This document shows, piece after piece, positions 3,672-63,083 of a DNA stretch of 64,000 bases. The stretch lies in NCBI GenBank assembly GCA_050942875.1, contig JBMNOD010000001.1, forward strand, positions 16,597 through 80,596, read 5' to 3'. A program made the position numbers and the translations under genes. This DNA is from Kiritimatiellia bacterium. GTDB lineage: Bacteria > Verrucomicrobiota > Kiritimatiellia > RFP12 > UBA3636. Under the pieces are notes generated by a model, which worked only from the letters and a program-made list of their open reading frames with translations, was not told the DNA's origin and did no database searches. The stretch's first letter is position 1. Every line of letters starts with the position of its first letter.

Positions 3672-4574
3672 TCAGTCGATGGCGTGGGGGTCGTCGCCGC
3701 CGGGTTCGTGGAGGTGGGGAGGCGGGACGATGGCGGGGTTTTTGGCGACGCGCTGGCGGACGGCTTCGTAGAGGAGGATGGTCGTGGCGGAGGCGACGTT
3801 GAGCGAGTCGCATTGGCCGAGCATGGGGATGCGGACGGGCAGGATGGCGTCGCGTTTCAGCCAGGCGTCGCTGAGGCCGTATTGCTCCGCGCCGACGACG
3901 ATGGCGGTGGGGCCGGTGAGGTCGTAGTCGGTGTAGAGCGCCGTGGCGTGCGGGGTCGCCGCGAGGATGCGGAAGCCGCGTTCCCGGAGGTAGGCGATCG
4001 CCTCGGTGGAGGTGGTGTCCACCACGGGCAGGGCGAACAGCGTGCCGATGCTGGCGCGGACGACGTTGGGATTCTGGATGTCGGTGCAGGCGTCGCAGAC
4101 GATCACCGCGGCGGCGCCGGCGGAATCGGCGGAGCGGAGGATGGTGCCGAGGTTGCCGGGCTTTTCGATCGCTTCCGCGACGATGACGAGCGCGTCCGGC
4201 GGGAGCGCGAGGTCGGCGAGGGCCGTGTGGAGCTGCGGCCCGATGGCGATCAGTCCGTCGGGACGGTCGCGCGCGGAGATTTTCTCGAAGACGGGCGGGG
4301 TGCAAATGAGGACGTCGGCGCCGACGGCTGTGCAACGTTCGACGAGCCGGGGCTCGTGCGTGCCCATGTAGAGAGCGGGGCAGACGACGATCTGCCGGGG
4401 CTTGTAGCCGTTGTCGAGCGCGCGCTTGATTTCGCGGTATCCTTCGACGAGCAGCGCGCCCGCCGCATCGCGGTGGGAGCGCTGGCGGAGCTTGGCGATT
4501 TCCTTGATCTTCGGGTTCGCCGGACTGGTGATTTCAAGTGGGGGGCGTGGGGGTGTCATTTGCGTCTTTATCAA
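3672..4574 (-). CDS. SpoU/TrmH-family RNA 2'-O-methyltransferase
   Basis: 300 aa with SPOUT-type C-terminal region (GNLGTILRSADSAG, QCDSLNVASATTILLYE). Confidence 0.78.
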   Translation of the reverse strand: MIKTQMTPPRPPLEITSPANPKIKEIAKLRQRSHRDAAGALLVEGYREIKRALDNGYKPRQIVVCPALYMGTHEPRLVERCTAVGADVLICTPPVFEKISARDRPDGLIAIGPQLHTALADLALPPDALVIVAEAIEKPGNLGTILRSADSAGAAAVIVCDACTDIQNPNVVRASIGTLFALPVVDTTSTEAIAYLRERGFRILAATPHATALYTDYDLTGPTAIVVGAEQYGLSDAWLKRDAILPVRIPMLGQCDSLNVASATTILLYEAVRQRVAKNPAIVPPPHLHEPGGDDPHAID

Positions 4575-4625
4575 AGTCGTCCGATAAGTTATACTGGACG
4601 GCTCACACTGTCAAGGAAGGACCTG

Positions 4626-5627
4626 ATGATCGTCAAGGCTTTAAAAAGGATTGTCGCGGCATTGTTCGCATTTGTTTTCGCGTCGTTGGCGCGGGGTGCC
4701 GAGGCGTCGGCGGCAGGGAACGACCCGATGGACGGGGTTGTGGATGGCGTCGCGGCATTCGTCAACGACGAGGCGGTAACGATTCGCGACGTCATGGTTG
4801 GCGTGCCGGCTCAGCTCAAGGCAATGGCCGAGCAGCCCGGGTTTTGGGACAAGACGCGAAGCGAGGCATTCGCCGCCGCTTATCAGGCTTCGCTCGACAT
4901 GGCAATCGAACGGTGTCTTGTCTTGCAGGCCTATCAGGCCGGCACGGAGCGCATTTCAGAAAAGGCCCTGGCGCAGTTTCTGCACGAAACGATCGAGTCG
5001 CGCTACGATGGCAGTGTCGCGAAGCTCCAGGAAGATCTGGCGAAGTCGCGCATGACTTACGACGACTGGAAGCGGATCATGGAGGAAAACATCGTCGTGC
5101 GCTCCATGCGTCAGTCCTTTGTTACTGGCAACGTCCATGTTTCGCCCAACGCGATTGCGGCTGAATATGAAGCTCGCAAGGAGGATCTCAAGAAGCCGGC
5201 CACGGTCAATGTGTTCGTTTTCGCCTTGCCGGACGACGATGATTTCGCGGCGGGCCATGCCGCCTTCACGAACCGCCTTGCTTCTGGCGAGGCGTTTGAA
5301 ACGCTTGCCCGAGAGCTTTCCGTGGACGTCATGGCGGATGTGGGCGGGGATTACGGTTTCATCGTCCCGGAGGTCGTGTTGGCGCCGGCTCTGGCGGAGG
5401 CCGTCAACAAACTGAAGGATGGCGAGGTGTCCGAGCCTGTTCCGCTCGGCTCCCGGCGCTATGTCCTCTTCCGGAAGGCGTCGACGCCTGAGAAAGATGC
5501 GACCCTGCGTGACGTCCGCGAGCAGATCGAGGCCGAGCTTCATGCCCAAGAAGCCGATCGCCTCTACACGCGATGGATCGCGCGGCTTCGCGAGGCGGCG
5601 GTCATCCGCACCTTCGATTTGAAGTGA
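4626..5627 (+). CDS. SurA-N-like periplasmic chaperone / putative peptidyl-prolyl isomerase
   Basis: Real start MIVKALKRIVAALFAFVFASLA (signal peptide) at ATG 4626, inside spurious ORF 3684..5627. Architecture resembles SurA/PpiD-family chaperones. Confidence 0.6.
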   Translation: MIVKALKRIVAALFAFVFASLARGAEASAAGNDPMDGVVDGVAAFVNDEAVTIRDVMVGVPAQLKAMAEQPGFWDKTRSEAFAAAYQASLDMAIERCLVLQAYQAGTERISEKALAQFLHETIESRYDGSVAKLQEDLAKSRMTYDDWKRIMEENIVVRSMRQSFVTGNVHVSPNAIAAEYEARKEDLKKPATVNVFVFALPDDDDFAAGHAAFTNRLASGEAFETLARELSVDVMADVGGDYGFIVPEVVLAPALAEAVNKLKDGEVSEPVPLGSRRYVLFRKASTPEKDATLRDVREQIEAELHAQEADRLYTRWIARLREAAVIRTFDLK

Positions 5628-18845: not shown

Positions 18846-19334
18846 AGTTCACGGAAGAGCCGAAGTGGTGGATGAAGAGCGATGAAGCGCCCCCCCTTCG
18901 GAGACTTGGTCGCTTTATTGGGTTTTTGGATCCGTCGGATTGGGCGGATCCGTCGGATCGGACGGATCGTTTGACGACGAAACCGACGCCCTGCACAAGC
19001 TGCAGTGCCAGCGGCGACCGCAGTTTCCAGCGGCACGGCCCGTGATGGGCGAACCAGAAGCCGGAACGCTGGAGCCCGCAAAACGTTTGTAGTGGGCCCG
19101 TAAGGGTCTCTTGCGCAAGGACGACGAATGAAGCGCCCTTCGGGTTTTCATTCGCAAGCCCTTGTTTCTCCATGCGCCGCAGCGCCTCACGGCGCCACTA
19201 CGAACCTTGAACCCCTGTGGACGCGGCGTCCCCGCCGCGTGTCGTTCCACGCGCTGCGCGTGGCAGGATGTCCACTCTGGGGTTTTTGGAGTCAGAGGAC
19301 GGGGCGAGGGCAAAACTTTGGGTGGGCGCACGGC

Positions 19335-33402: not shown

Positions 33403-33876
33403 TTACTTCGCTTCGGGTTTCTTCGCGCCCGAGCGCGCGGACTTGGGCTGGAGCATGAACATCATCGTCGCCTCCGCCGCGATTTCGCCATCGACGGTGA
33501 TCGTGCCCTGAATCTTGGCGATCATGCGGCGGTTGCTGACGAGCTTCGTCTCGATGCGAAGCTGGTCGCCCGGCTGGACGATCCGGCGAAACTTCGCGCT
33601 GTCCACGGAGAGCAGAATCGTGTCGAAGTCCGGCACCGTCTCCATGTTGCTGAGGATCATGAGCCCCGCCGCCTGGGCGATCGCCTCGATCTGAAGCACG
33701 CCGGGCATCACGGGATAGCCGGGGAAATGACCTTGGAAGAAAAGTTCGTTCATCGTGGCGTTCTTGATCGCCACCAGATGCGTGCCGCCCTCGGTTTCCA
33801 GCACGCGATCCACCAGCAAAAAAGGGTGGCGGTGCGGAAGGAGCTCCAGGATTTTGTCGATGCCAAATGATTTCAT
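33403..33876 (-). CDS. fabZ: 3-hydroxyacyl-ACP dehydratase
   Basis: 157 aa from MKSFGIDKILELLPHRHPFLLVD (ATG 33876); hot-dog fold with FxGHFP motif (FFQGHFPGYPVMPGVL). Confidence 0.88.
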   Translation of the reverse strand: MKSFGIDKILELLPHRHPFLLVDRVLETEGGTHLVAIKNATMNELFFQGHFPGYPVMPGVLQIEAIAQAAGLMILSNMETVPDFDTILLSVDSAKFRRIVQPGDQLRIETKLVSNRRMIAKIQGTITVDGEIAAEATMMFMLQPKSARSGAKKPEAK

Positions 33877-34004
33877 CTCGAGTTCTCGTTGCGATTGCAG
33901 CTTCCGGCGAAGCCCTCGTCGGGAATCCAACTGCTTTCGATTGGCGGCAATCATAGCAAAAACCACCCCTTCCAGCAAGGACACTTGTCACCCCCCTGCA
34001 AGCC

Positions 34005-34726
34005 GGGTGTGTGTCAGAAAAGTGACAAACAAATCCAGCATTGCCTATGTCATGCGTATTGAAAGGGTTTTTGTGTAGTGCTTTCGCTGCAATCGAACCG
34101 TGCCTTGCACCGTCGCTGTTTTCTCCTTTTCAGGAGGTGTGTTTTCATTGCCATGCCCCTCCCTGCACGCCTCTGTGCCTGTTTAGTGAGGAGTGAGAAG
34201 TGAGAAGAGCGTAGTTCAGGCCGGGGACACCCCAGACCCCGTTTTTAGACAGGGTTGCAGGATTTGCAGGATTAGGATTGGACTCCCCGGAATCTTGTCA
34301 ATCTTGTAATCTTGTCCAAGACTGCGCCACCTGCGCCGCGCCACCTACGATTTTTGTGGCTATGAAGGGAACTTGGAATTGGGGCGTGGCCGTGGCGGCT
34401 TCGCCGAGCGGGGAATGGCCACGAAAAACACAAAGACGCACAAAAAGTGGGTGGCGGTGGTGGGGGTTTGGACAAGATTACAAGATTGACAAGATTGCCT
34501 TGGTGGATGGAATCCTATCCAAAAAACGGGGTCTGGGGCGTCCCCGGCCTGAACTACGCTCTACGCTCTTCTCACTCCTCACTATGCGAAGGGCGACGCG
34601 GCGCAGGTGGAGGTTTTTGATCTAAAACAGGCACAGAGGGGGATTGGTTTTGAATTTGGCATCAGGAATGCCTCCATGTTTCATGGAAGCTCAAGGAACC
34701 ATGTTACGATTCTGACACACACCTTG
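34005..34726. mobile_element. MITE-like non-autonomous element, copy 1 (~722 bp), with giant internal foldback
   Basis: 15-bp terminal inverted repeats GGGTGTGTGTCAGAA (34005..34019) and TTCTGACACACACC (34713..34726). 8-bp direct repeat TGCAAGCC abuts both ends (33997..34004 and 34728..34735). The interior ~34165..34645 is a long near-perfect palindrome. Confidence 0.6.
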
Positions 34727-34916
34727 CAAGCCTGTTCTTGAAGTTAACAGGTTAACCTGTTTTTAATCACAAAACCAAATCAACAATTGGTATTATCCTC
34801 AGCGTAAGTGGATAAAGGGGTAGGACGGCATTCGACATCAAGGCAAACCCTTCCTTGCAAGCTGGAACAATCCCCTGCTGTATCAATGGTCGCAACGTGA
34901 AATCTGGAGGCTTCAC

Positions 34917-37704
34917 ATGAATTGGAACAAGCACATCAACGAAAATGCATCACGCCAGGAAACACGCCTGCATGGGATGCGGAGACTCGCCCTCGTCGCG
35001 TTATTGACGGCTTCCGGCGCCGCCGGCGCCCAAACGCTGTACTGGGGCGGCGGAACCACGGACATCGCCGACGACACGCCCCTTCCAACCGACGCGGCGC
35101 TGCTGAGCGGCACGTGGGACGCCACGACCCGGAACTGGACGACATCCCCCACGCCCGGCGCCTACACGTCGTTCATCGACGGCGCCGACGTGCAATTGGG
35201 GTGCTACACGAACATCAACGACGATGCGCTCGTCACGCTCGAAGCCAATCAAAGAATCGGCTCCCTGACCGCCTGCATGAGCCTGGCGAACAATTACAAT
35301 CGCGACTTCGGACTGACCGCCGCCGCGCCCGTGACCCTGACGGCCTCCGGCGCGAAATTCGTCGTCAACACCGTCGCGCCGCAAGTGACACGGCGCATCA
35401 CGCTCTACCGCAACGTGTCCCTCGCCGGAGACGTCCCGTTCGAAAAAACAGGGCGCGGCAGCTTCTACATCAACTCCGACAGCAGCGGCTACACCGGGAG
35501 CGTCCGCACCTCGATGGGGACTCTCTATCTCGAGGCCTCCGGCTCCCTGAGGGGCGTGCCCCGCTTCGTGTTGGCCGGAATCCCCATGAGCGCCATAGCG
35601 ACCAGCTACAGCGGAAACCCCTTCAGCACGGGAAACATGACGTTCTCCCCCCCCCTCGGGGGCAAACGACAAGCTGGACGACTCGGCCTTGATCGTCTTG
35701 AAGCGCGGCGCCTTCGAATTCCGCGGAGCGGGGGGCAGAACCGAAACCATCGGACGCATCGATGTCGAGACATGGGGCGTTCTCGGAGCCTGGGAGGGCA
35801 ACACGGACGGCATCCTCACCCTCTCGGATCCAACGGCCGGCCTGACGCGCGGGAGCACCGGCTCGGGCATGGCGATGGTTCACGTCAACGCCTCGGGCGC
35901 GCCCTTGGGCAACTTCAGCGTGCCCAACGGCATCGAGACGGACACGCTTCTGCCCTGGATCGCCACCAGCCGGGGAAGCTTCATGTATGTGGACAGCGCC
36001 GACAACAACACCCTGAAACAGGTCGCGGTGAGCGAAGCCGCAACCAACGTGACGACCTGGACGAGCCTCTACGACGCCACGAGCAACGTGCGGGTCGGCA
36101 ACGACTCAAGCGTCGCGCTCGCGGGGGCGCTGGACGGCTCCCTGACCCTGAAGTCCCTCGGCTTCTTCAACAACAGCGCCACGACGTTGGACCTCGGCGC
36201 CACCAACACCCTGACCCTGGCTTCCGGCGGCATCGCCTTCTACCCGGGAAGCTGGGGTGCGCATCAGACCCTGGCCAACGGCGCCCTTGCCTCCGGCTCC
36301 GGCACGCTCCATCTGCACAGCGGCGACTCGTCCATGTCGACGACGCTGATCCTCTCTTCGCCCATCGTCGGCGCCGACACGGACGTCGTCAAGGCGGGCG
36401 TCGGCCAGGTGGAGTTCCGGGGAACGAACAGCAACACCTACGGCGGAACGACGATCGTCAACGGCGGGAATCTGCTTCTGGACAAGACGGACGGCGCCAT
36501 TGCCATCCCCGGCCCCCTGGTCGTGCGCTACGGCGGCTCGGTCGACGCCCATGCCGGCAACATCAACCCGACAGCGGACGTGACGATCGAGTCCGGGGGG
36601 TTGATCTACGCCCAGAGCCAGACTTACAGCGGCGTCCTGAAACTGACGGGCGGAACCCTGCTCTTCCCCAATGCATGGATCACCTTGAACCACGCGACAA
36701 CGCCCGGCCTCGTCTTCAACGGCGGCTGGATCAACTACGACTCGAGCTGGTACGGCGGCATCCACCTCCAGACCGACGTGCGCTACGAAAGCACGGCCGA
36801 GACGCAGGCGCGCTTCGAACGCCTCGAATGGAACTACCCCAACGCTTCCTACAACATCAGGCTCAACGGCGGCAACCGCACCTTCGACATCGCCGACTCC
36901 GCCACGCTCCCCGCCGACGTTCCCGAAATGGTCGTCGACACGGCCATCGTCGACGGCTCCCCGGCCGGCGGCGCCCTGACCAAGACCGGCGCGGGCGTCT
37001 TGCAGCTCTCCTACACGAACAGCTACACCGGCGGCACGACGGTGAACGGCGGGACGCTGCGCGTCGCGAAAATCACCGCGCCCGCCCAAAGCGGACTCTC
37101 CGCCTACACCGTGGCCGGAATCGGATCGCACATCGTCACCTTCACCCAACCCGTCGCAAGGGACATGGTCGTCGGCCAGCAGATCACCGGATCGACGATC
37201 CCGACGAATCGCACGGTCACGGTCGCGCGCGTCCTCAACGACTGCGAAATCATGACGAACGGCGAAAACGTCAACGGCGCTTCCACGAACGTGGCCGTCG
37301 CCGCCGTGTCGCGCGCCGGCAGCCTCGGCACGGGCCCCGCGACCGTCAACAACGCCGCCACGCTCGAAATCGACGACGGCATCGCGCTGGCCAACGACGT
37401 CACCGTCAACGCGGGCGGCACCATCGCCGCCTCCGGCGCAGGCCTCGGCAGCCTCGTCGTCGATGGCGGGACCGTCTCGGCCCGACTGGCGAAGGGCCCC
37501 CTCGCCATGACCGGCGCCTTGAGCCTCGACGACGCGACGCTGGCCGTCGACTCGCTGCCCGGCGACGAGCCCGTGACGATCCTGTCGGCCGCCGGCGGCG
37601 TCACCGGGAAATTCACGAGCATCCCCGACAAAGTCACCGTGCGGTACCACCCCACCTCCGTCACGGTGAGCCGGCTCAAAGGCACGCTCGTCATGGTTCA
37701 ATAA
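34917..37704 (+). pseudogene. PATR-repeat autotransporter-like surface protein gene, frameshifted at a C9 homopolymer (phase-variable or pseudogene)
   Basis: GGAGG Shine-Dalgarno and ATG 34917; signal peptide MRRLALVALLTASGAAGA. N-terminal part reads in frame 3 through C9 at 35647..35655, and the PATR-repeat body (TKTGAGVLQLSYTNSYTGGTTVNGGTLRV etc.) continues in frame 1 (track ORF 35689..37704). Removing one C gives a continuous ...NMTFSPPSGANDKLDDSALIVLKRGAFEFRGAGG... reading. The track ORF tail 35700..38027 is Arg-rich nonsense. Confidence 0.7.
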
Positions 37705-37774
37705 GTAAGGAAGGCTCAGGGGTCAACGGCAAGACCCCTGAACCCCGCTCCTGCCCCCTTGGGGTGCGCGGCAA

Positions 37775-38815
37775 CTATGTTGACGCGCACCCTTTTTCTT
37801 TCTCCCCGTCCCGCCACACCAGGTTGACGGCCATCGTGGCCGGATGCGTCGGCAGCCCGCGCTCGCCGACGCGCAACAGCGAATCCAGCCACTCCACGGC
37901 GCGCCGCCCCACTTCGTCCGGGGAAAGACAAAGCCCGCTCCCGACTGCGGTCGGTTCGCTGATCCACAAGTTCGTAAAGCCCACCGCGTCGGGAACCGCC
38001 CATCCGGAATTCTTCAGCAGCCAGTAGAACGCGTTGTTGAAGCCGAGGACCATGTCCGGCTTGTGCTTGCGCATCCATTCATCCACAAGACGCTCGACAA
38101 CGGCTTGGGGAACGGCGTCCTTGTCCGCCGGACGGCCCTCTCTGATCCAGATTTTGATCTTCAGCACGGGAATGCGGCTGCGAACGGGAACCATCTGCTG
38201 CCGATCGAGAAAGGCCGCCTCGCGGTCATGCATGTCCAGCGCCGTCGGCATGTCCAACAGCATCATCCCGATCCGGCGACAGCCGGCGGCCCGGCATCGA
38301 TCCCAGGCTTCCTGCACGGCGCGGAAGTGGTTCGGCATCACCAGATTCACCGGCGGACACTCCACGCCCTTGCTGCACGCCACGGAGATGAAGCGGGACC
38401 AGTCGAACCTGGCGCAGAATCCCGGCGTGAAAATCTGGCCCACCAGCACGCCGACGATGCCGCGGTTGTAGAGCGTCTTCGACAATTTCCAGGGATCCGG
38501 ATGATCCGAGCACACGTACTTCTCCAACCGGTAGCCATAGGCCGCCGCCCGCTCCTCCATGCCGTCAAGCCCCTCCAGTTTGTCCCCGACAACCGCCAGC
38601 GTCTCCCCCCCGGCTTTCGGACGACGCTTCCAACGATGCGCCGCCAGCGCGGACAACATCGGATCCGGACGATAGCCCAGCTTCGCGGCGATCTTCCAGA
38701 TGCGCGCCCGGGTCTCGGATGAAATGCGCGTGCTCCCGCGCAACGCCAGCGAGACGGTTGCATTCGTGCATCCGGCTTCCTTCGCAATGTCCCTCAGTGT
38801 CGGCCGCTTGTCCAT
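37775..38815 (-). CDS. LacI-family transcriptional regulator
   Basis: N-terminal HTH PTLRDIAKEAGCTNATVSLALRG plus periplasmic-binding-like sugar-binding domain; 346 aa. Confidence 0.8.
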   Translation of the reverse strand: MDKRPTLRDIAKEAGCTNATVSLALRGSTRISSETRARIWKIAAKLGYRPDPMLSALAAHRWKRRPKAGGETLAVVGDKLEGLDGMEERAAAYGYRLEKYVCSDHPDPWKLSKTLYNRGIVGVLVGQIFTPGFCARFDWSRFISVACSKGVECPPVNLVMPNHFRAVQEAWDRCRAAGCRRIGMMLLDMPTALDMHDREAAFLDRQQMVPVRSRIPVLKIKIWIREGRPADKDAVPQAVVERLVDEWMRKHKPDMVLGFNNAFYWLLKNSGWAVPDAVGFTNLWISEPTAVGSGLCLSPDEVGRRAVEWLDSLLRVGERGLPTHPATMAVNLVWRDGEKEKGCAST

Positions 38816-38874
38816 GGCTTGATTATAGCAAATCGGTTTGTCCGGTTAAATGAAAAAAACGCCGGCGTTGGAAG

Positions 38875-39133
38875 TGGGTGTGTGTCAGAATCGTAACATG
38901 GTTCCTTGAGTTTCCATGAAACATGGAGGCTTTCTTGATGCCAACTTCAAAATCAACAGGCACACTGGACGTGGGAGCGGCATGGCAATGAAAACACGCT
39001 TCTGAAATCAAGAAGGGACGGCGACGATGCAAGGCACGGCTCGATTGCGGTGAAAGCACTGCACCAAATTCCCTTTCAATGCGCATGACATGGGCAATGC
39101 CGGATTTGTCTGTCACTTTTTTGACACACACCC
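38875..39133. mobile_element. MITE-like element, copy 2 (259 bp, inverted and internally deleted relative to copy 1)
   Basis: TIRs GGGTGTGTGTCAGAA (38875..38889) and TTTTGACACACACCC (39119..39133), with 8-bp TSD TTGGAAGT at 38867..38874 and 39134..39141. The two ends are ~90% identical to the two ends of copy 1 in reverse complement. Confidence 0.6.
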
Positions 39134-39380
39134 TTGGAAGTGTCTTGGGGACTCTTGCTCCGTTCAGGTTCGTCGCAGCACGGCCGAATTCCCCGACGGC
39201 AGGCTCGTCCTTCGAAAATCATGCCGTCTTGGGACAGGCTCTGTCTAGACTCTCCAGCGACTGGGAATCGGTCGAGTCAATCAACGACCTGGAATTGTCC
39301 GCCCTCTCCGATTGACTGATTACGCCTGATTGCGTTTTCATGTTGCACCTGCGCCGCCTTTCCTGCGATAATCCACCGGC

Positions 39381-53625: not shown

Positions 53626-53867
53626 CCCGCAAGTCTCGCCGCAAATGTTTTCGTGGTCAGTCAGATTGGCCGGATCAGGCCGATCAGCATTTCCGTACAG
53701 CAAAGTGGACGCGGCGTCCTCGCCGCGTGTCGCCGCCTGCGCCCCAGTCTCCACCCTGCCACACGCCCTCTTTCATCATGGCCACGAAAAACAAAGACCA
53801 CACAAAAAAAATCTGTGCTTTCTATGCTTTCTATGGATAAAAACCGCCAAGGACGCCAAGCAACTCT

Positions 53868-53947
53868 GTAATTCTGTAATCCATAATTCGTAATTCCACC
53901 ACCCTCGCCCATCCACCTTCTTTTTGCGTTTTTCGTGGCCATTCCCC
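53868..53947 (+). repeat. 80-bp direct repeat, left copy, flanking the R-M island
   Basis: GTAATTCTGTAATCCATAATTCGTAATTCCACCACCCTCGCCCATCCACCTTCTTTTTGCGTTTTTCGTGGCCATTCCCC; near-identical copy at 56354..56433. Confidence 0.7.
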
Positions 53948-54278
53948 ACCCACCCATGCCACCCTTTCACAGTTCGACAAAGTTCGCGACAAAGCGACAA
54001 AGCTGTCCTCCGGCAAATCACAAATCACAAATCACAAATCTAAAATCACTGGCGACAGGCATCGACTGGACAACAGGGGCTTGAAACACAGCCCTCCGGC
54101 CCAAATTTCAAGTTTCAAGTTTCAAACAACACAGAGAACCACAAGAAAAAATCTGTGCTTTCTTGTGGTGGTTCATGCGTTTGACCCACATTCAGTTGAA
54201 TGCTATACTTTCCGTCAGTCTTTCATGCTTTAATACGGGTCATACGGGTCTTGCCCTTTACTCACGGAAACGACAGAC

Positions 54279-54929
54279 ATGCCAATCCTAAACCGTCCCT
54301 TCAAACGCGAAGAGCACGTTTACGAAAACGAGCAGTTTTCGGAAATGCTCAAAGACGCGGTTCGATTTTTTCACGGCACACCAGTCTTCAACATTCCGCC
54401 TCCCGAGAAGTTTTCCGGCGCCGGTGTCTACGCCTTGTACTGCCTTTCACGATCGGGCATGTACAGCAAGTTTGGCAATGAAATTAACCGCACGGCGTAT
54501 TCTGTGCCGATTTATGTCGGAAAAGCCGTGCCAAGAGGATGGCGGCAGAACAGGATGCTGGATAAACAAGAGTCTGGGAACGTTCTCTTTTCAAGGTTGT
54601 CCGAACATGCGTCAAGCATTCAAGCTGGCAAGGGGCTTTCCATCGATGATTTTGCCTGTCGGTTTGTCATTTTCGAAGGAGAGTCCGCCGGCATGATTGG
54701 CGCAGTGGAAGCTGCAATCATCCGCGAACACAATCCACTCTGGAACAGTGTCATTGATGGCTTTGGAAATCACGATCCCGGCTCCAAGCGAGTGACAGGG
54801 CGAATGACGCAATGGGATGCACTCCATCCGGGAAGAGCCTGGGCGGCTCGCATGGAAGGCGAGAAACCGGACGCAAAAGATTTGCTCCGCCGGGTGAAGG
54901 ATTACATGGTGGGGTTGCGATGCAGATGA
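54279..54929 (+). CDS. GIY-YIG type II restriction endonuclease (Eco29kI/Cfr42I/NgoMIII family, CCGCGG-type)
   Basis: 216 aa with GIY-YIG elements GVYALY ... IYVGKA, then Arg, His and Glu and an Asn (REHNPLWN) in the canonical order. Gene order (R upstream, overlapping M by 10 nt) matches the Eco29kI operon. Confidence 0.7.
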   Translation: MPILNRPFKREEHVYENEQFSEMLKDAVRFFHGTPVFNIPPPEKFSGAGVYALYCLSRSGMYSKFGNEINRTAYSVPIYVGKAVPRGWRQNRMLDKQESGNVLFSRLSEHASSIQAGKGLSIDDFACRFVIFEGESAGMIGAVEAAIIREHNPLWNSVIDGFGNHDPGSKRVTGRMTQWDALHPGRAWAARMEGEKPDAKDLLRRVKDYMVGLRCR

Positions 54930-56056
54930 TCGAGCTTTTCACGGGTTGTGGAGGTCTTGCGAAAGGTATGGAACGGGCAGGATTCTCGCATGTGGCTTTC
55001 GTTGAAAACAATTCACACGCCTGCGAAACCTTGAGGTTGAATTTTCCGCCGGAAATCGTGCATGAAGTTGACATCCGGTCTTTTGATTTCTCTCGATTCG
55101 GATCGGTGGAAGCCATCGCAGGGGGTCCTCCATGCCAGCCTTTCTCGCTTGGAGGCCTCGCCAAGGCGCATAAAGACCATCGCGACATGTTTCCCGAGGC
55201 TACGCGCGCCATAACCGAGCTTGCGCCCCGGGGCTTTATTTTTGAAAATGTCAAAGGGCTTTTGCGACAAAGTTTTTCTGAGTATTTCCAGTACATCATC
55301 CTCCGCCTGACATACCCTACCTTCCACAAGGCTGATGGTGAACACTGGAAAGAGCATCTAGCCAGGCTGCAGTCCCTTTCCTATCAGAACTATACGGGGT
55401 TGAAATACCAGGTTCAATACAAATTGCTCAATTCCGCCGATTACGGTGTGCCTCAAGTGCGGGAACGCGTATTCATCGTTGGCCTTCGCGACGATGTCGC
55501 AACCCCTTGGAACTGGCCAAAACCGACACATGCGCGAAGCAATTGGAAGACCATTCGCGAGGCCTTGGCGGGGTTGCCAGATCCACAGGACAGGCGCAAC
55601 ACGTTGTCCGACCATGTTTTTGTTCCAGGAGCGAAGCCTTATCCCGGTCATGTGGGCAGCCCCATTGATCGTCCAAGCAAGACGATTAAAGCCGGGGCGC
55701 ATGGCGTTCCGGGTGGCGAGAACATGATTCTTTTCGAAGATGGAACCGTGCGGTATTTTACTGTTCATGAAGCGAAAATCATACAGACTTTCCCAAGCGA
55801 CTACTCGATTTCCGGCCCCTGGACCGAGGCGATGCGTCAGATTGGAAACGCCGTTCCGGTCAGGCTTGCCGAGATTCTAGGACGACAGCTTTTCAAGATT
55901 CTGTCCGCATCAACAACGGATTCGGAACCTATTCGATATCGCTCCGATTCCTCTGGCAATCTCCTGCTTGTCGAACGCTCCCGTAAGCATGCGCGGGATG
56001 CCTTTTATTCACATTCCGAAGCATCAACAGCATCCGATGTTTGTTCCAGCTACTAA
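54920..56056 (+). CDS. DNA (cytosine-5)-methyltransferase
   Basis: Start MQMIELFTGCGG (motif I), GGPPCQPFS (motif IV PCQ), ENVKGL (VI), QVRERVFIVG (VIII), GNAVPV (X). Track ORF 54812..56056. Confidence 0.9.
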   Translation: MQMIELFTGCGGLAKGMERAGFSHVAFVENNSHACETLRLNFPPEIVHEVDIRSFDFSRFGSVEAIAGGPPCQPFSLGGLAKAHKDHRDMFPEATRAITELAPRGFIFENVKGLLRQSFSEYFQYIILRLTYPTFHKADGEHWKEHLARLQSLSYQNYTGLKYQVQYKLLNSADYGVPQVRERVFIVGLRDDVATPWNWPKPTHARSNWKTIREALAGLPDPQDRRNTLSDHVFVPGAKPYPGHVGSPIDRPSKTIKAGAHGVPGGENMILFEDGTVRYFTVHEAKIIQTFPSDYSISGPWTEAMRQIGNAVPVRLAEILGRQLFKILSASTTDSEPIRYRSDSSGNLLLVERSRKHARDAFYSHSEASTASDVCSSY

Positions 56057-56353
56057 CCCGGCCACAAATAGCGTTGCGCACGGAGATTGAGGCATGGGAT
56101 CTGGAATTTGGCGTTGGAAAAGGGGCACGGACATTCCTGTCCGTGTTCGTCCACGGGTTGGAAAACCCGTGCCCCTGATTTGCAGCATGAATTATGGCCG
56201 GGTTAGTAGTTGGCTGGCAGACTTCACATGTCTTGGCTGCTGGTTGTCAGGAATTCCTGCGTCGGGTTGTTTGCCAATTTGGATTCCTCAGGCGAATCTT
56301 GCCAATCTTGCAATCTTGTCTAAAAAACCACTCGGCGAAGCCGCCACAGCCAA

Positions 56354-56433
56354 GTAATTCTGTAATCCATAATTCGTAATTCACCACCCTCGCCCATCCA
56401 CCTTCTTTTTGCGTTTTTCGTGGCCATTCCCCC
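56354..56433 (+). repeat. 80-bp direct repeat, right copy, flanking the R-M island
   Basis: Matches 53868..53947 except for one indel (TTCCACC vs TTCACC). Confidence 0.7.
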
Positions 56434-56584
56434 AACTCGGCGAAGCCGCCACAGCGCCACACCCCAGCTTCCAGTTTCAAGTGTCAAGTTTCCAACCAAT
56501 ATGCTATTCTTTCACCCATGCAACCATGCAGGACTCTAGACCATGGTCCATGGACTCTCGAAGTTTTTCCCATCGCCCACCACC

Positions 56585-56796
56585 CTTCGTCTAGTGAGGA
56601 GTGAGAAGTGAGAAGAGCGCAGTTCAGGCTGGGGACACCCCAGACCCCGTTAGGATCTACGTTTCTGTATCTTTCTGTTGTCTTCTGTGGACAAAACTTT
56701 TACCCCCACCCACCCCTCCGGTCAAACCGGGGTCTGGGGCAGCGCCCCAGCGGAAACTTCTCTCTCCTCTCTACGCTCTCCTCACTAAAACCAACC
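56585..56796. repeat. foldback (long inverted-repeat) element related to the core of MITE copy 1
   Basis: Left arm GTGAGGAGTGAGAAGTGAGAAGAGCGCAGTTCAGGCTGGGGACACCCCAGACCCCGTT and complementary right arm ...CCGGGGTCTGGGGCAGCGCCCC...CTCTCCTCAC. The same arms occur at 34186..34245 and 34525..34583. Confidence 0.6.
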
Positions 56797-56835
56797 CCTA
56801 GCCGCTAGCCGCTCAATTCGACAACGTTTCACCAC

Positions 56836-61431: not shown

Positions 61432-61600
61432 GCCCCCCAATATCGTACGAGCACGGCTTCGTCCCCGCCCCGGGGCTTCGTCCCCCCCCAATATCGTACG
61501 CGCGCGGCTTCGCCCCCCAATATCGTACGCGCTCGGCTTCGCCCCCCAATATCGTACGGGCGGGGCTTCGTCCCCGCCCCGGGGCTTCGCCCCCGCCCAT
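61432..61600. repeat. tandem ~30-bp repeats (CCCCCCAATATCGTACG core, 4 copies)
   Basis: Direct repetition is visible in the sequence; a related copy lies at 62876..62915. Confidence 0.6.
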
Positions 61601-62227: not shown

Positions 62228-62570
62228 TGGCAAAGGGGCGCGGGTTTTCCAACCCGTGGCAAAGGGGCGCGGGTTTTCCAACCCGTGGCAAAGGGGCGCG
62301 GGTTTTCCAACCCGTGACAAAGGGGCACGGGTTTTCCAACCCGTGACAAAGGGGCGCGGGTTTTCCAACCCGTGGCAAAGGGGCGCGGGTTTTCCAACCC
62401 GTGACAAAGGGGCGCGGGTTTTCCAACCCGTGACAAAGGGGCGCGGGTTTTCCAACCCGTGACAAAGGGGCACGGGTTTTCCAACCCGTGACAAAGGGGC
62501 ACGGGTTTTCCAACCCGTGAATAGTTAAAGGCCAAACTCCAGGCACGGGTTTTCCAACCCGTGAACGACC
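62228..62570. repeat. spacerless tandem array of a 29-bp hairpin-forming unit (~10 full copies plus degenerate copies)
   Basis: Unit GT(G/A)GCAAAGGGGC(G/A)CGGGTTTTCCAACCC repeated head-to-tail with a strict 29-bp period. Each unit contains CGGGTT-TTCC-AACCCG. A reverse-complement copy of the unit lies at 56150..56180. Confidence 0.8.
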
Positions 62571-63083
62571 ACGGACAGGAATGTCCGTGCCCCTGGTTCT
62601 GCTGCGCCCCGCGCCTCGGCGCGGGCGAGCGGCGGCTCGCCGGGACGGCGTCGCCCCACCTCCGAAGCGCGCCCCGCGCCGGAGCGCGGGCGAATCGGCG
62701 AAGGCTATAAAACGCGGCGAGGACGCCGCGTCCACCGCGCGACGCGAAATCAATGATCCGTCCTATCCGTCCAAGCCGTCCGACCACCTTGCCGCAAGCC
62801 GTCCACTGCGTCCACCCAAACCCACCCAGAAAAAGGACGGCGCCTTTCTGTGTCGCCTTGTCGCATAAAGAGCTTTGTCGCCCCCCAATATCGTATGGGC
62901 GGGGCTTCGCCCCCCATTCAGAAGCCGCCCCAACGGGGCGTGGCATCTCGCTCTCGGTCGCCAGACGCACAGCGATGACGACAGGCAATTCTTCTCCCGT
63001 CTGTTCGCCGGCCTCCATTCCAGATCAAGCGCCTTCGTTGAAATAGACATGCAACCCGTCTTTGCCGGTTCGCCGCCGGCCTT

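Follow-up and report, generated by a model that had tools for sequence, protein, structure and literature searches.

A foldback mosaic of dispersed repeat modules within an ISKra4-derived miniature element of a Kiritimatiellia bacterium

What is the long palindrome at 34165-34645 of a 64,000-nt stretch of Kiritimatiellia bacterium DNA (contig JBMNOD010000001.1, positions 16,597 to 80,596; the whole stretch is called the window here), and how did it come to be there? An earlier note on this DNA had described it as a near-perfect foldback of about 480 bp inside one copy of a miniature inverted-repeat transposable element (MITE), built from modules that recur in other intergenic regions. We compared the two MITE copies of the window, folded the region and searched for its modules in other sequences. 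On balance, we favour the reading that the foldback is a non-coding mosaic of dispersed repeats which lies in an ISKra4-derived MITE and was made palindromic in situ by template switching. It is selfish or structural repeat DNA, neither a gene nor a new system, and the site gave no sign of a new biological system or function.

Folded as single-stranded DNA, the segment 34165-34645 reached -162.4 kcal/mol compared with -71.8 ± 4.8 kcal/mol in dinucleotide shuffles (z = -18.8), with 0 of 100 shuffles folding as well, and the larger stretch 34000-34730 gave z = -14.6. On these scores the long foldback is real and well past chance. It consists of nested inverted repeats that pair 34184-34246 with 34522-34584 (63 nt, 94% complementary), 34291-34331 with 34456-34496 (41 nt, 88%), 34170-34184 with 34625-34639 (15 nt, 100%) and 34327-34345 with 34592-34610 (19 nt, 89%). 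Over their whole length, however, the arms are matched in blocks only. BLAST of the region against itself reached 66% identity in 443 columns, the left half and the reverse complement of the right half, when aligned globally, share 175 identities in 308 columns, the matched blocks are interrupted by several indels of 18-40 nt, and the right side carries a 55-nt tail (34587-34641) with a left partner only for its 15-mer. Thus the foldback itself stands, but "near-perfect" does not hold for it, and the description of the arms as mirrored base for base has to be dropped. The second set of foldback arms that had been placed at 56585..56796 does exist as an arm unit at 56590-56653 and an inverted one at 56724-56789, but its folding is weak (56575-56800, z = -3.2).

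The second MITE copy provided the reference for the anatomy. Copy 2 aligns to 34005-34183 (84%) and 34644-34723 (94%) of copy 1 and has no counterpart for 34184-34641, so the foldback is a 458-bp insert of copy 1 relative to copy 2. The features are as follows, where the A unit is a 64-nt repeat and R1 is the covariance model built from such units.

33996-34004, no strand: left target-site duplication of MITE copy 1, CTGCAAGCC, 8/9 positions matching TTGCAAGCC at 34724-34732
34005-34183, + strand: left part of MITE copy 1 with terminal inverted repeat GGGTGTGTGTCAGAAAAGTGACA, 84% identical to 39133-38955 of copy 2
34184-34641, no strand: foldback insert, 458 bp, absent from MITE copy 2 (gap between copy 1 and copy 2, fold, no credible open reading frame, no Rfam match)
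34182-34245, + strand: A unit of type 1, left arm (R1 72.9 bits, E = 1.4e-17, a score from a model that includes this sequence itself), 95% identical to 56589-56651
34291-34319, + strand: module B, left copy (AATCTTGTC AATCTTGT AATCTTGTCCAA), identical to the inverted 34468-34496 and 90% identical to 56294-56323
34380-34434, - strand: central module C (GTGGCGGCTTCGCCGAG...GGGGAATGGCCACGAAAAAC), 86% identical to 56466-56408 in reverse orientation
34468-34496, - strand: module B, right inverted copy, identical to the left copy
34523-34586, - strand: A unit of type 1, right arm, loop ACG (R1 73.3 bits, E = 1.1e-17), 91% identical to the left arm
34587-34641, no strand: unpaired right tail, 55 nt, with 34327-34345 inverted at 34592-34610 and with 34625-34639 equal to the reverse complement of 34170-34184
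34642-34723, + strand: right part of MITE copy 1 with terminal inverted repeat ...CATGTTACGATTCTGACACACACC, 94% identical to 38956-38877
38877-39133, - strand: MITE copy 2, the foldback-free "empty site" reference from the alignment with copy 1
56590-56789, no strand: second inverted A pair, type 1 at 56590-56653 (+) and type 2 at 56724-56789 (-), R1 76.8 and 73.8 bits, 70-nt spacer

In the left arm, the A unit has the heptads AGTGAGG/AGTGAGA/AGTGAGA/AGAGCGT followed by AGTTCAGGCCGGGG-ACA-CCCCAGACCCCGTT, and the spacer to its right holds two TTGCAGGAT repeats. Module B follows (34291-34319; its third repeat can also be written AATCTTGTCC), and a CCACC-rich stretch, mirrored on the right, separates B from module C. 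The right-hand order is the mirrored CCACC stretch, B, a shorter spacer and A. The motifs quoted in the earlier note were located by sequence matches within a few bases of their places, and their recurrence in other intergenic regions was confirmed: AATCTTGYCAATCTTGYAATCTTG at 34291(+), 34473(-) and 56295(+), GGCCACGAAAAAC at 34417, 53780, 53928(-) and 56413(-), and CTTTGTCGC at 53986/53994(-), 61401/61413 and 62873. Modules B (AATCTTG...) and C (GGCCACGAAAAAC...) were not found in fetched loci, plasmids or viral contigs, and the foldback had no match among plasmids. No open reading frame (ORF) of the insert exceeds 115 aa, and the longest (34278-34625) is not recorded as a called gene; all are short, of low complexity and unlike a real protein. 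Rfam gave 0 matches in the whole window, both at the gathering score and at E <= 1, and 0 in eight related loci at the gathering score, and no tRNA or tmRNA genes were found. Judged from its sequence, the insert is a mosaic of dispersed repeat modules and, as far as these predictions go, non-coding.

The host element was assigned through its ends. The terminal inverted repeats of MITE copy 1 read GGGTGTGTGTCAG... and ...CTGACACACACC, copy 2 is flanked by a perfect duplication of 9 bp (CACTTCCAA at 38868-38876 and 39134-39142), and the MITE without the foldback insert measures 257-261 bp. An exact 24-mer of the outer MITE had no match in metagenomes, while a degenerate search of metagenome contigs with the right terminal repeat returned 13 loci. 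One of these contigs (L044; L numbers label the fetched loci and contigs) carries at 3808-5569 a 1762-bp insertion sequence (IS) bounded by the same terminal repeats as the MITE (92-96% identical), whose 394-aa ORF matches the ISKra4-family transposase model NF033572 with E = 2.7e-56 and 191.5 bits compared with a curated cut-off of 205. Miniature relatives of 100 nt occur in L030, L046 and L049, all without the foldback insert. The outer element 34005-34723 thus combines terminal repeats shared with an IS, 9-bp duplications, a non-coding interior and two copies in the window. Because the terminal repeats are common to the MITE and to an IS that encodes an ISKra4-family transposase, the host element of the foldback is, on sequence grounds, assigned as an ISKra4-derived MITE. 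The likeness to ISKra4-family (ISNCY group) elements is confined to this outer part, namely its terminal repeats and 9-bp duplications, and the foldback insert has nothing in common with them. As a separate observation, the metagenome contigs L039-L041, L047 and L048 have an ISKra4-type right terminal repeat preceded by triple short-repeat modules (GATTACGATCAGGA..., CGACAAAGTTCGCGACAAAG) of the kind seen in the intergenic regions of the window, with no left terminal repeat within reach; these elements may be one-ended or composite MITEs that carry modules around.

The way in which the palindrome arose was approached from its own symmetry. Four collinear blocks are mirrored in it, namely A, the spacer, B and the CCACC stretch; the A arms are 91% identical over the unit, the B copies are identical, and the left arm matches the copy at 56590 at 95%. 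The right tail closes with AAACAGGCACAGAGG, which repeats exactly, in inverted orientation, the 15 nt that abut the insert on the left; these 15 nt belong to the MITE, since copy 2 carries TGTGCCTGTT at the same place. The 15-mer occurs at two places only in the window, the fetched loci give just look-alikes with 2 mismatches, and the chance expectation for such an inverted 15-mer is estimated at ~4e-8. Because the arms are 91% identical compared with 56-67% for partner arms elsewhere, and because the tail holds an inverted copy of the 15-nt flank, an inverted duplication in situ is favoured. A ready-made element is disfavoured, since on arrival it would not contain the flank of its target in inverted form.

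The series of events would have started from the ~260-bp ISKra4-derived MITE that, with its 9-bp duplications, stands between fabZ (-) and a PATR-repeat gene (+). A mosaic of dispersed modules, present in one MITE copy and absent from the other, would then have entered at 34183/34184. The half-structure A-x-B-y-C may have been copied inverted in situ by strand or template switching during replication or repair, with copying that ran 15 nt into the flanking MITE and then switched back, which would leave a palindrome. Later indels, including expansion of a 9-mer, would have made the arms unequal, and a deletion of ~41 nt from the left arm (TTAGATC...TTCGCA) between two TAG microhomologies could have produced the present junction of CCTGTT with TAGTGAGG. 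The A units might themselves have spread by a single-strand mechanism of the Y1/HUH type, using an IS200-like enzyme or a RAYT, the tyrosine transposase associated with repetitive extragenic palindromic (REP) sequences; this is suggested by the lack of target duplications together with the conserved GTAGTT ahead of the hairpin, and it is the weakest step. On this reading, the locus would be a natural example of palindrome formation, with a filled and an empty MITE to compare and a flank-derived inverted 15-mer as the footprint of a template switch.

Several points weigh against this reading. The comparison rests on two MITE copies, so a deletion in copy 2 is conceivable, and no second copy of the whole foldback was found in all the sequence searched. 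Modules B and C were seen in the window only, and short-read contigs stop at 34168 and resume at 34694, which leaves the interior of the foldback without independent confirmation. The nested layout could also have built up as palindromic elements inserted one after another, each into the centre of another. As to the spread of the A units, their GTAG(TT) lies 6-7 nt off the stem, whereas classical REPs have it abutting, and tblastn of the window and ~330 kb of loci, a tiny part of the genomes, with E. coli RAYT and IS200 TnpA queries found no credible RAYT or IS200-like gene. A weak match from that search in L026 (E = 0.04, beside the motif) was rejected as a RelE-like toxin ORF.

A 458-bp element with A-unit terminal inverted repeats might instead have transposed whole into the ISKra4-type MITE, with 56590-56789 as a shorter relative that has the same ends. 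Two loci of the window do hold inverted A pairs around different interiors, the canonical element in metagenome-assembled genomes (MAGs) is an inverted pair bounded by CAGTGAG...CTCACTG, and near-identical multi-unit palindromes stand at several contig ends of one MAG (L012, L014, L018, L019, L021, L022). Arrival of such a pre-formed element is nevertheless unlikely: target-site duplications are missing both at 34184/34641 and at the canonical pairs, the unit at the left end is truncated and the right end has 55 nt extra, the inverted 15-mer of the MITE flank is left unexplained, and nothing that was searched contained a second copy of the element. The insert therefore lacks the combination of inverted repeats, a duplication and several same-ended copies that marks a MITE, although its A units do give it inverted ends. 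We regard as decidedly improbable a history in which an A pair, then a B pair and then C were each inserted, like Russian dolls, into the centre or loop of the previous element. Some insertion sequences, such as IS1397 and ISKpn1, target REP hairpins, the A arrays of the MAGs are nested in a further palindromic layer (CGGCGACCGCCCGATTAC ... GTAATCGGGCGGTCGCCG), and the entire structure here lies within a MITE. Successive nesting, however, does not fit with module B standing single and non-inverted at 56295, with spacers x/x' and y/y' that are mirrored too and partly similar, or with arms far more alike than the family background, and it leaves the inverted 15-mer and 19-mer of the tail unexplained. 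In situ duplication covers the 15-mer directly.

A functional role was weighed against the position of MITE copy 1 (34005-34723), which lies between two divergent genes:

33403-33876, - strand: fabZ, followed by lpxA and a GspD-type secretin
34917-38027, + strand: large PATR-repeat protein gene

There is little likelihood that the foldback serves between these genes as an RNA or DNA structure (terminator or insulator, mRNA-stabilising hairpin, small RNA). Elsewhere A units abut gene 3' ends and lie between convergent genes. Their G-rich strand has stops in all three frames in 22/44 units and in at least two frames in 42/44, compared with ~4/44 with all three in mononucleotide shuffles, while the complementary strand is stop-free in 36/44, and a T run follows the two type 1 copies of the window. 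At this locus, however, the location is on the promoter side of divergent genes, and nothing is transcribed into the foldback from fabZ or the PATR gene because both run away from it. The T run is not conserved across the family, and Rfam gave no match. Consensus scans of 33850-34950 found no promoter and two weak terminator-like sites, both outside the arms, and overall counts were no higher than in shuffles; with no site in the arms, the foldback does not have the make-up of an intrinsic terminator. The foldback itself is probably functionless at this site. It is likely, however, to form hairpins or cruciforms, to cause slippage and other trouble in replication as well as in assembly, and to offer a substrate for rearrangement.

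An assembly artefact, through a chimeric or inverted join or a repeat collapse, is very improbable. Logan contigs from two samples (SRR31066179 and SRR31066035) are 100% identical to the window, and they do stop at 34168 with the next beginning at 34694. The ends of contigs L032, L033, L034 and L051 at 34168, 34694, 38902 and 56771 all fall inside MITEs or an A unit, and de Bruijn assemblies can be expected to break at repeats; position 34168 itself is in MITE sequence, 16 nt ahead of the insert. Artefactual foldbacks are perfect, whereas the arms here have diverged, with several indels and an asymmetric tail, and the A unit is 95%, not 100%, identical to the other window copy. The divergence of the arms thus argues against an artefact. 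An insert boundary at 34169/34170, which the contig break had prompted, was rejected, as copy 2 carries TGTGCCTGTT there. Another copy of the MITE elsewhere in the genome accounts for the break better, and further MITE copies are therefore implied.

The A unit was characterized beyond the foldback. In its 64 nt, four heptads that have G at each second position are followed by the hairpin CTGGGG-ACA-CCCCAG and by ACCCCGTT. According to R1, the window holds exactly four, at 34182-34245 (+), 34523-34586 (-), 56590-56653 (+) and 56724-56789 (-), and the second pair (56590-56789) has selA 47 nt downstream. A scan of one genome per prokaryotic species with the core 21-mer GGGGACRCCCCAGACCCCGTT gave 31 loci: 16 contigs of the Lentisphaerae MAG JAAZAI01, 8 contigs of the Lentisphaerales MAG CAZKJH01, 1 Kiritimatiellia contig, 1 Opitutales contig and 7 loci of other phyla. 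Together with the window, these yielded 44 A units that align over 64 nt with the consensus nnnAGTGAGTAGnGCGTAGnGnGTAGTGAGTAGTTnCGGCTGGGGACACCCCAGACCCCGTT. CTGGGG...CCCCAG.CCCCG is invariant in the 44 aligned units, with a loop of 3-7 nt; because the stem is invariant, covariation of the hairpin is uninformative. In the upstream heptads, G stands at every second position in at least 90%, with GT/AG at each heptad junction, and positions G30, A32, G33, T34 and T35 are at least 90% conserved (GTAGTT, 6-7 nt upstream of the stem, with GTAG also at heptad junctions). Units of type 1 read ...GTGG/CAGG-CTGGGG-ACA-CCCCAGACCCCGTT and units of type 2 ...TTTCCGCTGGGG-CTCTG-CCCCAGGCCCCGG.

R1 gave 67 matches in 269 kb of fetched loci, the full-length ones only in Lentisphaerae and Kiritimatiellia; its Opitutales, actinomycete, acidobacterial, gammaproteobacterial and viral matches cover the hairpin core only (model positions 35/40-64). 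The CTTTGTCGCGAACTTTGTCG module is common to the window and many contigs of other Lentisphaerae/Kiritimatiellia MAGs and metagenomes, and further window modules shared with those genomes are CTAGCCGCTAGCCGCT, the CGGGTTGGAAAACCCG hairpin (Opitutales) and a 28-mer from 62633-62660. The idea of a dispersed family, which was to be given up if the modules proved to be confined to the window, thus holds for the A unit and the CTTTGTCGCGAACTTTGTCG module, while B and C have been seen in the window only. No description of the A-unit motifs was found in the literature or Rfam, and on these alignments the A unit defines a short, apparently new repeat family in Lentisphaerae and Kiritimatiellia. Many A-unit matches lie at contig ends, because repeats break short-read assemblies. 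The family sits in a poorly studied phylum and fragments its metagenome assemblies, and the 64-nt model could be used for masking or bridging breaks in Lentisphaerae MAGs and for seeking the enzyme that spreads the units.

The arrangement of the units was then compared between loci. Most commonly a type 1 unit is followed after 10-30 nt by an inverted type 2 unit; tandem arrays of three units (L023) and 2+2 palindromes (L012) also occur. With partner arms elsewhere no more alike than random A-unit pairs (69 ± 9%), the long hairpin is not the conserved feature; what is conserved in the family is the unit pattern and the small hairpin. No target-site duplication was seen at canonical A pairs. 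No A array lies inside a called gene (by crude GC3-based gene calling), six begin -18 to +44 nt from the upstream gene's end, and several are flanked by convergent genes. The stop codon of the gene is supplied by the first heptads of the array in L030 and L005. With a period of 7 nt, a stop codon passes through each of the three frames in turn, and an inverted pair presents its stop-rich strand outward at either end. Among short tandem repeats, period 7 prevails in the repeat-rich intergenic DNA of the window, while coding regions show multiples of 3. Loci of JAAZAI01 (L012 400-900, L014, L016, L020, L030) have A arrays enclosed by a further inverted layer, CGGCGACCGCCCGATTAC ... GTAATCGGGCGGTCGCCG, and in several of these copies TTAC stands directly 5' of the first A unit. 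TTAC is the target tetranucleotide of IS608-type Y1 transposases.

Comparison with known repeat classes brought the family close to the REP group. REP sequences and the REPINs formed from them are extragenic, form hairpins with a GTAG-type head, occur as doublets and clusters and make no duplications (Bertels & Rainey 2011, PMC3116915). A units likewise are short hairpin units in extragenic space, with many copies per genome and no target-site duplication. Their commonest arrangement is an inverted pair, beside direct tandem arrays, and a GTAG-containing motif is conserved 5' of the hairpin, at a distance of 6-7 nt. They form an imperfect short palindrome (CTGGGG-N3-7-CCCCAG), and their extragenic copy number is high (MAGs with 16 and 8 contigs, 67 matches in 269 kb, four in the 64-kb window). 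In contrast, the A unit is 64 nt long with four phased heptads, whereas a REP has 20-40 nt; its partner arms are two distinct subtypes with a likeness of only 56-67%, so that the long hairpin is poor in most copies; and the host phylum (Lentisphaerae / Kiritimatiellia) is not one with described REPINs. By analogy, the A family would work like REP and bacterial interspersed mosaic elements (BIMEs), and we did not file it as a REP/RAYT member because no RAYT was found in a small sample and the GTAG lies 6-7 nt from the stem.

The BIMEs of enterobacteria are mosaics of alternately oriented palindromic units interleaved with other short conserved motifs. The window resembles them in its reuse of modules, whose order is reshuffled from one intergenic site to the next; it differs in its sequences and module set, in that many modules are triple tandem repeats of 7-9 nt, and in that one cluster is nested in a MITE as a 458-bp palindrome. 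To call the modules a family "of the REP/BIME or foldback-element kind", as the earlier note did, is therefore fair for their organisation (direct and inverted hairpin arrays, mixed motifs, no duplication) and for their extragenic, non-coding nature, but less so for the RAYT, which was not found in the sequence available, and for modules B and C. Eukaryotic foldback (FB) transposons have long inverted arms of short tandem subrepeats around a non-repeated centre. They share only their shape with this foldback, which is from another domain of life, has no associated transposase and shows no sign of moving as a unit. Among heptamer repeats, the cyanobacterial short tandemly repeated repetitive (STRR) sequences are intergenic and tandem, and TAACTGA repeats are described in Beggiatoaceae, cyanobacteria and Bacteroidetes. 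The latter (MacGregor 2015, PMC4679880) and the STRR sequences are like the repeats here in their short runs (2-6) of 7-nt intergenic units with stop codons inside, so that three copies cover three frames. The heptamers here are of several other kinds (AGTGAGN, TCACAAA, TTTCAAG, GTAATTC), are joined to hairpin modules and are not just upstream of start codons.

The hairpin core stands out as the most unusual loose end, being base-perfect across phyla and within phage genes. The core CTGGGGACACCCCAGACCCCG is conserved to the base in Lentisphaerae, Kiritimatiellia, Opitutales, Actinomycetes, Acidobacteria and one gammaproteobacterium. In its form CTGGGGACACCCCAGACCCCGTT, it was seen base for base in Actinomycetes, Acidobacteriaceae, Streptosporangiaceae, an AT-rich gammaproteobacterial contig and an Opitutales chromosome (L004 731-754, L006, L010 with two tandem copies, L028, L024, L026 6695-6722 and L017 5160-5190). 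At these loci outside the family, the 5' CT that completes the stem is present in all and the heptad tract is absent; an estimated ~2 chance matches compare with at least 5 independent contexts seen. In IMG/VR contigs with a GC content of 0.68-0.69 (L035 3639-3659, L036 3659-3679 and 7481-7501, L037 263-283), the 21-mer lies in frame within ORFs and encodes LGTPQTPG. There it sits 30-90 nt past another hairpin, GGCGGGGGACAAGCCCCCGCC, which encodes GGGGQAPA, and it occurs in two different genes of one contig. By analogy, the viral 21-mer has the appearance of a palindromic insert that keeps the reading frame, comparable to the Rickettsia palindromic elements. A speculative and rather doubtful extension would see in the A unit a repeat class that joins phased stop-rich heptads to this core, with the core in frame in GC-rich phage genes; the core would be a widely transferred hairpin or the recognition site of an unknown, broadly distributed enzyme, and in Lentisphaerae and Kiritimatiellia the unit would act as a bidirectional "stop translation and fold" cassette at gene ends.

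Elsewhere in the window, an Eco29kI-type restriction endonuclease gene (54279-54929) and a C5 cytosine methylase gene (54812-56056) form a restriction-modification (R-M) island within 53626-56835, where GC is low (0.46-0.55 compared with ~0.70 in the flanks). Repeat-rich DNA borders the island on both sides and shares a direct repeat of 80 nt (53868-53947 and 56354-56432, 98.75% identical), which bears out the remark that the island abuts the repeats. This bracketing is compatible with the suggested recombination hot spot and is no proof of it. An exact 21-nt direct repeat, ACTCGGCGAAGCCGCCACAGC (56330-56350 and 56435-56455), flanks an 84-nt segment near-identical to 53868-53947; this 21-nt repeat represents a partial tandem duplication or else an insertion duplication of unusual length.

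Further repeats were recorded in the window. At 62231-62520 a 29-bp unit with the hairpin CGGGTTTTCCAACCCG is repeated ten times in tandem (copies 97% alike), and 56121-56176 holds a related single copy plus a second hairpin, GCACGGACATTCCTGTCCGTGC; the CGGGTTTTCCAACCCG hairpin also adjoins the core motif in the Opitutales genome (L017 5194-5210). Another 29-bp tandem repeat, CCCCCCAATATCGTACGCGCGCGGCTTCG, runs for 3.2 copies at 61484-61575, just past a selD-like gene, with another copy 1.3 kb off at 62883. Finally, a separate REP-like palindrome, GTGGACGCGGCGTCCTCGCCGCGT, occurs at 19217-19244, 53702-53732 and 62711-62735 of the window and also in L008, L011, L042 and L044.

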